Source: an uncultured Alphaproteobacteria bacterium
GTDB lineage: Bacteria; Pseudomonadota; Alphaproteobacteria; RF32; CAG-239
Assembly (NCBI GenBank): GCA_934277435.1
Contig: CAKQUE010000001.1
Span: 385,957-449,956 of the forward strand
Reading direction: 5' to 3'
Length of the DNA: 64,000 nucleotides
This document shows, in pieces, positions 3,818 to 64,000 of the stretch. The position numbers were made by a program, and so were the translations under genes. A model generated the notes under the pieces. It did no database searches. It had not been told where the DNA came from and was given only the letters and a program-made list of their open reading frames with translations. The stretch's first letter is position 1, and each line of letters starts with the position of its first letter.

Positions 3818-3835
3818 TCTTTTCTAAACTCATTA

Positions 3836-3925
3836 AGGCGAAGGGACTTAGACCTTGTACAGACCGTTACGGCTGCTTTCTTCCGAACCTGACCGAGTTG
3901 GCGGTTTTCCAACCCTAAGCCCTTC
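3836..3925 (-). ncRNA. ffs: Signal recognition particle RNA (small 4.5S type)
   Basis: Minus-strand transcript contains GGUCAGGUUCGGAAGAAAGCAGCC, matching the conserved SRP domain IV motif. The 5' segment GAAGGGCUUAGGG pairs with the 3' segment CUAAGUCCCUUC. It lies immediately upstream of dnaX, the usual position. Confidence 0.8.
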
Positions 3926-3984
3926 ATTAATAAATACCCTTTCATAATGGGCAAAATTACATATTTTGCAAGCAAAAAATAAAC

Positions 3985-41214: not shown

Positions 41215-41291
41215 TGGCGCGCTCCGGGCGATTCGAACGCCCGACCCACAGCTTAGAAGGCTGTTGCTCTATCCTGCTGAGCTAGGAGCGC
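41215..41291 (-). tRNA. tRNA-Arg (anticodon TCT)
   Basis: Cloverleaf folded by hand. Acceptor GCGCUCC/GGAGCGC. Anticodon loop CUUCUAA. T-loop UUCGAAU. Encoded CCA. Confidence 0.9.
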
Positions 41292-44965: not shown

Positions 44966-45242
44966 TTGTGTCAAACCCGCTTTTTCGCGGCTTCTTATCC
45001 CTTGATACTTCACCAACAAAAAAAAGCCACCATAAAGGTGGCTTTACTGTTGGTGAGCTCGGTGGGATTACTCCACTTCGTTTCGTTCACTGCGCTCATA
45101 GGCATTGCCTACCGGCACACTCCCGTGCGCCTTTCGCTTGTGTCAAACCCGCTTTTTCGCGGCTTCTTAGCCCTTGATACTTCACCAACAAAAAAAGCCA
45201 CCATAAAGGTGGCTTTACTGTTGGTGAGCTCGGTGGGATTCG
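44966..45242. repeat. Tandem direct repeat (2 x ~102 bp) containing the tRNA-Lys 3' end plus flank
   Basis: 44966..45068 and 45141..45242 are near-identical. Each ends in tggtgagctcggtgggatt (tRNA 3' end) and carries the hairpin aaagccacc-ataa-ggtggcttt. Confidence 0.85.
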
Positions 45243-45297
45243 AACCCGCGACCCTTTGATTAAAAGTCAAATGCTCTACCGACTGAGCTACGAACTC
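45222..45297 (-). tRNA. tRNA-Lys (anticodon TTT)
   Basis: Hand-folded. Acceptor GAGUUCG/CGAGCUC. Anticodon loop CUUUUAA. T-loop UUCGAAU. CCA encoded. Confidence 0.85.
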
Positions 45298-60778: not shown

Positions 60779-60854
60779 GGGCGCTTAGCTCAGCTGGAAG
60801 AGCATCTCGTTTACACCGAGAGGGTCGGGAGTTCGAGCCTCTCAGCGCCCACCA
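60779..60854 (+). tRNA. tRNA-Val (anticodon TAC)
   Basis: Hand-folded. Acceptor GGGCGCU/AGCGCCC. Anticodon loop UUUACAC. T-loop UUCGAGC. CCA encoded. Confidence 0.9.
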
Positions 60855-61127
60855 CTTAAATAGCTGCCGCAAGGCAGTTTTTTTGTTTTTAAAGCTTTGA
60901 AGCTCAAACTCCCTCGGGAGTTCGTTTGCATTCGATATAAATTGCTGCGCGCAAAGCTAGTTTGGCTGGCAATTTATGAATGCTGCACCTTTCGTTGAAA
61001 AATATCCATTAAGGGATATTTTTCTGTCTCAAGCCGGTGTCTCAGCGCCCACCACTTAAATAGCTGCCGCAAGGCAGTTTTTTTGTTTTTAAAGCTTTAA
61101 GGCTCAAACTCCATCAGGAGTTCATCG
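60841..61127. repeat. Direct repeat (2 x ~87 bp) of the tRNA-Val 3' end plus downstream flank
   Basis: 60841..60927 and 61041..61127 share ctcagcgcccaccacttaaatagctgccgcaaggcagtttttttgtttttaaagcttt...ctcaaactcc..ggagttc with about 4 mismatches. Each copy contains the terminator ctgcc-gcaa-ggcag plus T7. Confidence 0.85.
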
Positions 61128-61239
61128 TAAAAGTTGGGCAGAGTAAAAAGTTATAAAAAATAGTTCTTTATCTTTACATTTTAATATCAAGAAATTATAT
61201 TTTATGCAGAAATAGTTTTTGTCTTTAGAAGGAGAAAAT

Positions 61240-61764
61240 ATGATGGATAAAAAAGAAAAAATGGAAGCGGCTAAAGAAGAGCATAAATGCTGCTGTAATA
61301 AAAACTGCGATTGCGGTTGTCAAGAGGGTAAAGAATGCACTTGTGGCTGCGGTTGTGGTTGTGGCTGCGGTTGTTGCTGCAAGAAAAAAGTTTTTAAAGT
61401 TTTGGCGGTATTGGTTATCTTTTTGGCTGGTATGGGGTTTCAGGCTTTGTTGCAATGCGGTTTTCGCTGCCCAATGAACAAGCCGCGTCCAATGCCGGTA
61501 CAGATGGCTCCAATTCCGGCGATGCCTATGCCTGCTTATTCTGACGCTCAAGGCGGTGACATCATTATTATTAATACTGATGGTTTAGCCGGTATAGAAA
61601 AGTTTTTGAAGAACAAAGGCTGTTCCAAGGATTGCGGCTGCAAAAAAATAAAACACGACCATGATCATCATTCACACAAAAAAGATAAGCATTCGGAATT
61701 TCACGCAGATAGACATGCTCATATGCCGGAACATGCGCCAATGGCACCGGAAGCGGTTAAATAA
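61240..61764 (+). CDS. Cys-rich / His-rich metal-binding membrane protein (metallothionein-like N-terminus)
   Basis: N-terminal CCCNKNCDCGCQEGKECTCGCGCGCGCGCCC, one TM helix, Met/Pro-rich segment, His-rich C-terminus HDHDHHSH...HADRHAHMPEH. AAGGAG RBS. Confidence 0.65.
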   Translation: MMDKKEKMEAAKEEHKCCCNKNCDCGCQEGKECTCGCGCGCGCGCCCKKKVFKVLAVLVIFLAGMGFQALLQCGFRCPMNKPRPMPVQMAPIPAMPMPAYSDAQGGDIIIINTDGLAGIEKFLKNKGCSKDCGCKKIKHDHDHHSHKKDKHSEFHADRHAHMPEHAPMAPEAVK

Positions 61765-61787
61765 TCTAGAAAAAAATCTAAATTTGA

Positions 61788-61818
61788 GGCTCCCTTACTT
61801 TGCGTGAGGGAGTTTTTT
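61788..61818 (+). terminator. Rho-independent terminator
   Basis: ggctccctt-loop-gtgagggag followed by T7. Confidence 0.7.
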
Positions 61819-61972
61819 TGTGACATTTATATGACAATTTTATAACAAATTTATTTTATGTTTGCTTATTTTACAAGAGTTTGTTAGAATAATTATGGGG
61901 GAGTAGTCCGACTTTATATAAAGTTAGGACTGTATGGTTATATAATTTTAGGAGGCTTTACGATGAGCAAAA

Positions 61973-64000
61973 TGAAGCAAATAGCGGCTTTGACGGCTAT
62001 GCTGGTTGGCGTGATTATGTATGCGTCGCCTGCAAAATGTGCGGTCTGTTTTTTGCCTGATGATGACGGCAGTTGCGGCGGCGGAGATATAGAAATTTCG
62101 GACGGTAGCGGTAGCGATGACGATAAACCGGTAAAAGAATGCAGCGGTTTTACGGTTAGTGCCACAAATTATGACAAGATGAAAGATTGTTTTAATTTTA
62201 CATATTGCACAAAATCAAAAACAAAAGAAGTAGTCTATAAAAAAGGGGGTAAAAAAAGCAATACCCACTGGTATCCTAATTGGAACGCTTGCTGCACAGG
62301 TGGAACAGCCTATGATTTGAGAGAAGGTAAGTGTTGTCCGGCTGGCGGCTGTGTACACGACGAATGTGACGCCCCGAAAGTATGGAGCAGCATTTTGGGT
62401 AACTGCGTATGTCCGGCTGACAGAGAAGAAAATACAACTAGTAATACGTGTTGTCCTGTTGGCGAACACGCAGATGGTGCGATTTGTTGTCCAGATAAAA
62501 AACATAATGAAGGCGGTGAGTGTAAGTGCGACAGTAAATACAATACCGATAAAAATGGTAATTGCGTATTGCCGAATAACTGCACTTATGCCTATCGCCA
62601 AGCTACAACAGCAGATAGCTGTGGTTTAAAACATTTTGAAAATACTACTAAGTGTATGGATAGCATAAATGGCTGTTTGTGTTACACTCAATTGCAGAAA
62701 GTATCATCTGTTTATGCTGGGAGCGCTGGAACTGTTATTCCACTTAACAAAATCAGCAATACGTCTGCAACTTGCATTGATGAAAACAATGTAACTAGAT
62801 ACCAGACAATTTGTCCAGGAACGCCAGAATCAGGATGTACTGATAAAGATAAAGAGTTTAAGCCAAACGGCTGCGTAAGCGATACTTATAACAATGGTTT
62901 TGAAGTTAAGGGTGTTAGATGGGGTGATTGCGTTAAAAAAGAAGAAACCTGCCTTTATGAATATACTATGTTAACGACAAAAGATACAGGCGGAGTCACG
63001 GATATTAGCGGTCAATCACTTAGATATAGTAAGAATTGGAATGATAAGTGTTATAAAGAGGGCCGTAAAATAGAAAAGACTTCTACTTGCTATGGTTATG
63101 AAGGTTCCAATGGTACTTATAGTTGTGGCGGCACTAGTGATGGACCAAAATGCACCAATCCAGGAAGCAGTTGCAAAATTACACAGACTTGCACGATGCG
63201 CTATAATTGTCCAACTCAGGCATCTTGCGGTATAGCGGATAATCCGTCTGTTTATAGTGAAGGTATATTTGTTGGAAGTCACTGGAGCACACCTTATAAC
63301 AGAATAAGTAATGCATCCGCAAGCTGCACAACAATTGATGGAGTAACAAAATATCAAACTATTTGTGAGGGAACTCCTAAACAAAAATGTGATAAAAAAT
63401 TTACACCAAATAACTGCGTAAGTAGTGATTATAGCAACGGTGTTCAAGTCTTGGGTGCAGAGTGGGGAACGTGTGGTTGCGATACAGACAAAGGATATTA
63501 TGATAGCATGGAAACATGCAGAAGTAATGCAAACTCTGACGGCTGTATGACATCCAATATTTATGGTTGCTATCAAACCTGCAAATCCAGAAGAGGGTAT
63601 TTTTCAACCCTAGAAGACTGCAGAGATACAACCTATAGCGTTAGCTGCAATAAAACTGATGATTGTTATGAGAGAAGAATGCAAGGCTTCTTGATTAAAT
63701 ATGAAACAGATTTAAAACTACTAGTAGATTGTCATAGTCCTTATTCTTACACTGTTAGGGTAAATGCGTTCTTAATGGATGTTACTAAAAATAAATATTC
63801 TGGACTAGAAGAAGCAGACAGATACTCTACAACAATTAGCGGAGAAAAACATATAGCTCTGCCTGTAGATACTTCAAAAGGATATCAATATACGGCAGGA
63901 ACCTATTATCTTTGCTACCAAAGCAGCTGTTCATCATCAGGTAGTAATAATCAAAAATGTCCTAATGTTTCTGTAAAATCTGTGCAGTTACTAAAACAAT
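61973..64000 (+). CDS. Very large secreted cysteine-rich repeat protein (5' partial, continues beyond the window)
   Basis: Hand translation from the ATG at 61973 (GGAGG RBS). Signal peptide MSKMKQIAALTAMLVGVIMYASPA. More than 675 aa open to the window end. Over 10% Cys. Internal repeats, for example ...ISNTSATCIDENNVTRYQTICPGTPESGC... and ...ISNASASCTTIDGVTKYQTICEGTPKQKC.... It is missing from the ORF track because there is no stop in the window. Confidence 0.7.

Follow-up and report, generated by a model that had tools for sequence, protein, structure and literature searches.

A cysteine-rich, Sec-exported protein of an uncultured gut alphaproteobacterium belongs to a mosaic family and differs between strains much more than the proteins encoded next to it

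Variable surface proteins of bacteria are known from contingency families such as Helicobacter babA/babB, Neisseria opa/pilE-pilS and Mycoplasma Vlp/Vsa, and TraA of Myxococcus is a polymorphic surface receptor in which a variable domain is combined with Cys-rich repeats. Among eukaryotes, Giardia's variant-specific surface proteins (VSPs) are defined by numerous CXXC motifs (median 26), together with a transmembrane domain at the C-terminus and a CRGKA tail (10.1101/2022.03.07.483299). Here, a Cys-rich gene was analyzed which starts at position 61963 of a DNA stretch of 64,000 nt (the window; contig CAKQUE010000001.1, assembly GCA_934277435.1, uncultured Alphaproteobacteria bacterium) and continues beyond its 3' edge. 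We consider it rather probable that the gene belongs to a recombining multi-copy family of Sec-exported, disulfide-rich proteins which are displayed on or released from the cell and in which the binding or antigenic parts are diversified. The protein family is new, and its behavior looks like an evolutionary strategy that is already known. In the following, L and P numbers denote the compared loci and proteins.

Reading of the frames in the window gave 679 codons without a stop from the ATG at 61963 to base 63999, and in the frame of 61975 no stop interrupts the sequence from upstream of the region through the last base of the window. The initial annotation had correctly seen a long stop-free open reading frame (ORF) here (61963-63999), but its start, 61973, lies one base off an internal, second in-frame ATG at 61972; the frame of 61973 itself has stops throughout and was rejected as a start. 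Since the N-termini of all homologs read MSKMKQ, the ATG at 61963 is the likely start. The full-length protein was recovered from the database as P0001, which has 750 amino acids (AA) and is 100% identical across the part within the window; therefore, the protein is not giant, as had been proposed, and the window lacks the last 71 codons only (expected gene end near 64215). Two antisense ORFs at 62215-62601 and 63016-63576 both exist and start with TTG. The + strand is the coding strand, and since it has 145 homologs and its product folds confidently, we infer that the antisense ORFs are shadows of the Cys-rich gene.

The encoded protein is Sec-exported and modular, as suggested before, and almost certainly fully disulfide-bonded. 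Hydrophobic windows of 19 residues are confined to residues 4-32, confirming that a signal peptide is followed by no later membrane segment, and a site for signal peptidase I (SPase I) is predicted after codon 26. The Cys content of over 10% given in the initial annotation proved too high: it is 57/679 (8.4%) for the part in the window and 60/724 (8.3%) in predicted mature P0001, with a local maximum of 8 Cys in residues 101-150 (16%). The following parts were delineated, in which pLDDT is the predicted local distance difference test score of the structural model.

61963..62040, + strand: signal peptide, codons 1-26 (hydrophobicity), with predicted SPase I cleavage after A-K-C/S
62041..62136, + strand: mature N-terminus AVCFLPDDDGSC with CFLP and a second Cys, then a Gly/Ser/Asp-rich disordered linker, codons 27-58 (motif conservation, pLDDT)
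62137..62574, + strand: N-block, codons 59-204, a small domain and a run of CC-containing β-hairpins (exchange breakpoint at ~204 in BLASTP of 120 members, model)
62575..62949, + strand: module M copy 1, codons 205-329, with 8 Cys and numerous polar and aromatic residues that are invariant (best-conserved region of the family)
62950..63252, + strand: variable Cys-rich insert, codons 330-430 (alignment; absent from family members of ~657 AA)
63253..63480, + strand: conserved core of module M copy 2, codons 431-506 (E 3e-25 against copy 1)
63481..63672, + strand: Cys-rich connector of helices and hairpins, codons 507-570 (alignment, model)
63673..64000, + strand: first 109 residues of the C-terminal β-sandwich, the domain being codons 571-750 (strand-rich model of high pLDDT)

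An internal duplication relates residues ~195-323 to residues ~398-504 with 37% identity (E 3e-25). Of the internal repeats of about 65 AA which had been described, the unit stands, as a conserved core of ~65 AA (258-323 versus 442-504), whereas the protein contains one module twice and no long array. The AlphaFold2 model, computed with 120 homologs, has a mean pLDDT of 81.6. Residues 1-57, i.e., signal peptide and linker, are disordered (pLDDT <50), residues 59-107 form a small α/β unit and residues 108-204 a rod of short β-hairpins with CC pairs. Module M (~125 AA) modeled alone reached a pLDDT of 89.8 and a predicted TM-score of 0.82.

The N-terminus is the most uniform trait of the family. 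CFLP follows the signal peptide in 119/120 members, the family motif being xxCFLP(x5-8)C, and C29, F30, L31, P32 and C38 are invariant columns in an alignment of 28 full-length homologs. Three leader classes were found (AKS-AVCFLP, ASA-RVCFLP and AWA-TTCFLP, hyphen at the cleavage site), in all of which an AxA/AxS site is placed exactly two residues before the invariant Cys. The linker after the motif is disordered and acidic or Pro-rich. Of 119 members, 108 contain an even number of Cys in their predicted mature form. This parity, which includes the first Cys, fits complete pairing with a small C29-C38 loop and argues against lipidation.

An exhaustive hidden Markov model search of 1.84 billion representatives returned only 80 clusters at E ≤ 1e-3. 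In the genome collection four loci were found, and all records are from uncultured human-gut Alphaproteobacteria (UMGS1578 and two Hadza metagenome-assembled genomes, MAGs); the only protein name given by a source is ‘MAG: hypothetical protein [Alphaproteobacteria bacterium]’. The family was thus found only in gut Alphaproteobacteria. Pfam gave no family at E ≤ 1 for the protein, including the EGF, TNFR and furin-like repeats considered in the initial annotation as well as Chlam_OMP6 and DUF11, and no matches were obtained with NCBIfam, PADLOC and PHROGs. A sequence profile search of PDB found nothing significant (best E 0.76), and Foldseek against PDB gave nothing at E ≤ 0.001. The best Foldseek matches (E 0.017-1) comprise jelly rolls of TNF ligands, not of receptors, and various sandwich folds, with laminin at E 0.53; for the C-terminal sandwich, only weak Ig-like, ZP-C-like and TNF-like structural matches were seen. 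Comparison with Pfam and solved structures therefore gave no EGF, TNFR or furin-like match, and as no known bacterial surface-repeat family was matched either, the earlier adhesin idea was not contradicted on this count. Longer, distant family members are likewise without a Pfam domain, save for a marginal match of P0181 (E 5e-4), which is probably spurious. No relative of the family was found in IMG/VR, and with PHROGs also empty a viral origin was rejected. No description of the family was found in the literature. On sequence comparison, this is an undescribed, lineage-restricted family with modules lacking detectable relatives in PDB.

Family genes occupy recurrent genomic positions. Locus A is situated 3' of tRNA-Val and a gene for a Cys/His-rich membrane protein and 5' of tRNA-Glu and sodB; it was seen in the window and in L001, L002 and L010-L012. 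Locus B is flanked by murJ and a CDF efflux gene (L003, L008, L014, L015, L024 and L025), and head-to-head pairs of family copies are present in L009 and L023. Two paralogs, L002 and L003, were found in one Hadza MAG (CAKQUG01). In sample ERZ1034897, at least six copies were found, six of them spread over five contigs; because their coverage is similar (37-42x), they were assigned to one genome, and the data suggest that all six derive from it.

The copies are mosaics. When 120 members were compared to P0001 by BLASTP, a sharp junction appeared at residue ~204: many members match it over residues 1-204 only (54-82% identity), others solely from 204 to the end. Therefore, N-blocks and bodies combine freely, with the junction at residue ~204 being fixed. 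L002 and L003 have a common 5' block of 676 nt (97.6% identity), which begins 16 nt before the ATG and is bordered by unrelated flanks; corresponding blocks are common to L012 and L014 (900 nt, 95.6%) and to the pair in L023 (675 nt, 96.3%). P0191 has the same residues 1-177 as P0001 except for two, and an unrelated body. Judged from these alignments, the N-block appears to be an exchangeable unit which is homogenized between paralogs of one genome.

The Cys-rich gene is also far more diverged between strains than its neighbors. When the window is compared to L012, the flanking proteins have identities of 96.2% and 98.5% and the Cys/His-rich neighbor one of 86%, in contrast to 51% for the Cys-rich protein. 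At the DNA level, 94% identity extends to 62255 (codon ~98), beyond which it drops to 67-72% or the sequences become unalignable; the window DNA upstream of the gene is 94% identical to UMGS1578. Within the 28 full-length homologs, module M copy 1 is most conserved (mean pairwise identity 0.77, minimum 0.53) and the C-terminal sandwich least (mean 0.40).

An exchange between the two loci is directly visible in L010, which stems from a different sample and is colinear with the window over 6.6 kb.

62155..62401, + strand: gene-conversion tract of 247 nt, holding all 59 differences between the window and L010; the remaining ~6.36 kb are identical

For the initial 600 nt of the gene, compared in bins of 50 nt, L010 has identities of 100, 100, 100, 94, 80, 80, 82, 71, 76, 100, 100 and 96% to the window, and of 92, 94, 100, 100, 100, 94, 100, 96, 100, 60, 84 and 52% to the locus-B allele P0073 (L024). 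Inside the tract, L010 is thus 94-100% identical per bin to the locus-B allele. Such a patch matching the paralogous locus is the signature of gene conversion, which would have proceeded from locus B to locus A. The allele of L010 and L011 additionally reads TCAAAAAAACGAC with seven A (A7) versus TCAAAAAACAAC with six A (A6) at locus B, which is in frame in L024 and L025; the corresponding position in the window is at bases ~62217-62226 (TCAAAAACAAAAG). In these two independent samples, the gene is broken by the A7 frameshift into two ORFs (92 and 606 AA), and intact versions of 750 AA are present in other assemblies. The A7 allele is either a pseudogene or the ‘off’ state of a slippery tract.

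Several paralogs per genome and segmental recombination between copies, both of which are features of variable surface-protein (contingency) families, were found here. Because the gene is hypervariable between strains, undergoes conversion between paralogs and has a frameshift allele, its population genetics agree with a host- or environment-exposed protein.

The region upstream of the gene contains the following elements.

61785..61820, + strand: terminator-like hairpin CTCCCTTACTTTGCGTGAGGGAG followed by TTTTTTT, ending the upstream gene (read from the sequence)
61862..61890, + strand: putative promoter TTGCTT-17 nt-TAGAAT, weak and inferred by eye; its position is kept in a family alignment of 8 loci
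61904..61932, + strand: hairpin in the 5' untranslated region (5' UTR; predicted fold)
61950..61955, + strand: ribosome-binding site AGGAGG, 7 nt before the ATG and present in six loci with the MSK-type leader

The terminator was not listed by the scanner used, its loop being longer than 8 nt. For the downstream side, the context was taken from the syntenic locus L010 via P0186, a member of the P0001 cluster. There, a strong terminator directly follows the stop codon, and after it come a MITE-like repeat (MITE, miniature inverted-repeat transposable element), tRNA-Glu, sodB and a response regulator gene. With one terminator upstream and one directly after the stop, the Cys-rich gene is monocistronic and forms its own transcription unit. 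The 5' UTR hairpin is unexceptional compared to shuffled sequences (z -1.2). In its L002 counterpart, pairing is kept via two-sided changes, as judged by eye in the alignment. Rfam has no match at the locus of the Cys-rich gene, and a regulatory RNA in the 5' UTR is not claimed in view of this and the shuffles. In L003, L004, L008 and L009, an A/T-rich palindrome centered on CGATCG or CGGTCG, e.g., GTGTGTAAAAATAACGGTCGTTTTTTTTACACAC, is found ~60-100 nt before the start of the family gene; in the locus-B and paired copies, its place is between the putative promoter and the ribosome-binding site, and it may act as an operator or form a structure of the 5' UTR. In locus-A copies, this position is taken by another hairpin.

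Taken as a recombining family of exported disulfide-rich proteins, the copies would be cleaved by SPase I, fold in the oxidizing periplasm and then either be released or stay displayed on the cell. A common export or attachment stalk would be provided by the conserved leader and N-block, and the exposed binding or antigenic parts by the conserved M modules together with the variable C-terminal sandwich. Many disulfides would confer protease resistance in the gut, and recombination among copies, possibly with on/off switching, would diversify the surface under host immunoglobulin A, phages or competitors. The family members are probably binding or coat proteins, surface-exposed or secreted, and may serve as adhesins.

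Several observations weigh against this interpretation. Neither a binding function nor a relative of the folds was found with Pfam, NCBIfam, the PDB profile search or Foldseek against PDB. No anchor, β-barrel, sorting tag or secretion partner was recognized, and the neighbors are housekeeping genes; similarly, Pfam has no match to autotransporter or two-partner secretion features (C-terminal β-barrel, N-terminal TPS domain) and the model contains no barrel. The assignment to the same genome is indirect, being based on equal coverage for the six ERZ1034897 copies and, for P0191, on a longest contig as long as that of P0001 (514,841). A single frameshift allele was seen, which could be a pseudogene rather than a switch, and the putative promoter, with 8 of 12 consensus matches, was below the threshold of the consensus scanner and was not reported by it. 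A bolder version, which we regard as doubtful, sees in xxCFLP(x5-8)C plus linker a new N-terminal sorting or attachment signal that delivers interchangeable disulfide-knotted heads to the surface. The approximately six loci would then be a gene-conversion-driven, possibly phase-variable system of antigenic or receptor variation in a human gut commensal, with folds without known relatives. No ORF outside the family, in the window or the compared loci, has a CFLP leader; therefore, a wider sorting signal is unsupported by the available sequence.

Among the alternatives, the protein could be a structural component of the periplasm or envelope, in which disulfide cross-links stiffen the envelope as in the chlamydial Cys-rich envelope proteins. 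The SPase I-type signal and the lack of a recognizable device for outer-membrane translocation or anchoring agree with this, as does the Gram-negative envelope of the host, which is indicated by lpxK, a Kdo-transferase-type gene (Glycos_transf_N) and a MATE transporter gene in the neighborhood, where lpxC is found as well. An identity of 51% compared to 96-98% for the flanking proteins is, however, unexpected of an envelope structural protein, and so are shuffling and conversion among six paralogs; even Cys parity suggests internal pairing and not free Cys for cross-links, and Chlam_OMP6 and DUF11 were not matched, so that this explanation is rather unlikely. It is less likely again that the CFLP Cys is lipidated and tethers a lipoprotein to the membrane through the disordered linker, even though an invariant Cys right after the signal peptide and a disordered linker of 20-40 residues are the usual lipoprotein layout. 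For the usual lipobox, G, A or S is required at position -1 (PROSITE PS51257). In the family, A-V, R-V or T-T precede the Cys, and S-A-V-C, A-R-V-C and A-T-T-C fail the lipobox [LVI][ASTVI][GAS]C; the SPase I site two residues upstream of the Cys in all leader classes and the even Cys number including the first Cys, which fits a C29-C38 disulfide, also speak against a lipid anchor.

A polymorphic toxin or bacteriocin, with an N-terminal part for export or receptor binding and a variable C-terminal toxin, would account for the conserved N-terminus, the variable C-terminus and the swapping of modules at a fixed junction. This we think improbable, since the stop codon of locus A is directly trailed by a terminator, the MITE-like repeat and a tRNA without an immunity-like ORF, the small ORF downstream of locus-B genes is similar irrespective of their different bodies, and no toxin domain was found with Pfam, PADLOC or PHROGs, the variable domain being modeled as a plain β-sandwich. 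That the Cys bind metals in a periplasmic protein for metal or redox handling is brought to mind by the neighbors, as locus A follows the metallothionein-like Cys/His-rich membrane-protein gene and locus B adjoins the CDF cation-efflux gene. The two loci have different neighbors, though, and are separate transcription units; a single CXXC, even Cys parity and confidently modeled knotted modules argue against such a role, and hypervariability is unexpected of a metal chaperone, which makes this explanation very improbable. We see hardly any chance for a eukaryote-like protein with Cys repeats of the EGF, TNFR or furin type acquired by horizontal transfer. Secreted Cys-rich modules are typical of eukaryotic extracellular proteins, and Foldseek gave weak, non-significant matches to laminin, Eph receptor and integrin chains. 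The eukaryote-like origin considered in the initial annotation is nevertheless unsupported, as Pfam and PDB structures gave no match of these types and the records name uncultured gut Alphaproteobacteria.

Some observations concern the surroundings of the family genes. The gene upstream of the Cys-rich gene in the window (61240-61764, + strand; start of the listed ORF at 61219) encodes a protein of 174-181 AA. A CxC/GC-repeat cluster CCCNKNCDCGCQEGKECTCGCGCGCGCGCCC at its N-terminus is combined with a single transmembrane helix and, at the C-terminus, a tail rich in Cys and His (HDHDHHSHKKDKH...), so that the protein appears to be metallothionein-like and anchored in the membrane. The gene is kept 5' of the locus-A copies L001, L002 and L010-L012 and has no significant family match; NCBIfam hits to TraB and CbiN (E 0.07-0.17) were far below the cut-offs and were ignored. 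Further upstream, tRNA-Val (60779-60854) is followed by an 84-nt direct repeat (60840-60923 and 61040-61123; 95% identical, 200 nt apart), which begins in the last 15 nt of the tRNA gene and includes a terminator hairpin. This looks like a duplication of the att-site type. The other boundary of locus A is tRNA-Glu (L010, 12257-12332).

The MITE-like element has ~170 bp and terminal inverted repeats (TCAACGTCAT...ATGACGTTGA). Copies are present at ~2855-3030 in L001, ~11990-12160 in L010, ~12016-12164 in L002, 9514-9718 in L008 and 7861-8285 in L009, located 3' of the family gene in L001, L002, L009 and L010 and 5' of it in L008. In the window, BLASTN at E<1e-4 gave no match to the L001 copy. 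The element may promote rearrangement or assembly breaks. Assemblies with an identical 390-AA neighbor (L005, a contig end, L006 and L007) break just before locus A, which fits strain heterogeneity or repeats. Locus-B copies are followed by a small hydrophilic ORF of 104-115 AA without a Pfam match (L008 12187-12501, L024 8209-8556, L003 12031-12348), conserved irrespective of which body type the family gene has. Another secreted protein, of 677 AA, is encoded in L023 (11346-13379); it has DGSLFPGGxC repeats in tandem as well as a second region containing Cys, lies 4 kb from the head-to-head family pair and is unrelated to the family by BLASTP. Elsewhere in the window, a small signal recognition particle RNA and two tRNA genes were found using Rfam gathering thresholds (3834-3928, 41218-41291 and 45225-45297, all - strand).

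To our knowledge, uncultured gut Alphaproteobacteria have barely been studied. In these bacteria, the Cys-rich family is the clearest candidate for a fast-evolving, exposed interface with the host immune system, phages or other microbes. It would add a bacterial, disulfide-rich case to the known ways of varying surface proteins. The compact modules have confident models and no detectable relatives in PDB. The gene may further be useful as a strain-level marker, every difference between the window and L010 in 6.6 kb being inside it, and the gene-conversion tract makes recombination between two loci directly testable.

Compared to described systems, the features that define VSPs are absent from the family, as are those of lipoproteins, OmcB, autotransporters and polymorphic toxins. 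Similar to chlamydial OmcB and OmcA, it consists of Cys-rich, Sec-exported proteins of a Gram-negative envelope, but OmcB is conserved, whereas the present family is a hypervariable mosaic and matches neither Chlam_OMP6 nor DUF11. With Myxococcus TraA it has in common secretion and a Cys-rich stalk combined with a polymorphic recognition domain of β-sandwich type, and by this analogy a role in cell-cell or kin recognition is one possibility. Unlike TraA, it has no match to the myxobacterial Cys-rich repeat or PA14 models of NCBIfam and Pfam and no C-terminal sorting tag, and stalk and variable domain come in the opposite order. Giardia VSPs are likewise encoded by a multigene family of a gut organism and have a signal peptide, one conserved terminus and a variable Cys-rich ectodomain of ~70-80 kDa thought to be protease-resistant (10.1101/2022.03.07.483299). 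VSPs are eukaryotic, however, and the protein described here has only one CXXC in 750 AA, no transmembrane segment after residue 32 and a C-terminus (...SCRALTVRG) without CRGKA; its family is conserved at the N-terminal end and has no sequence similarity to VSPs. As in the bacterial contingency families, a genome has several paralogs, a variable body is joined to a conserved 5' end or signal peptide, segments are converted between loci, and a frameshift allele occurs in a homopolymer tract. In contrast to them, no silent cassettes and one tract-length variant were seen, and contingency-family proteins are β-barrel outer-membrane proteins, pilins or lipoproteins and not disulfide-rich, whereas the Cys-rich family is disulfide-rich and its surface exposure putative. 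By analogy, the family would therefore resemble contingency families in its behavior and Giardia VSPs in its chemistry.

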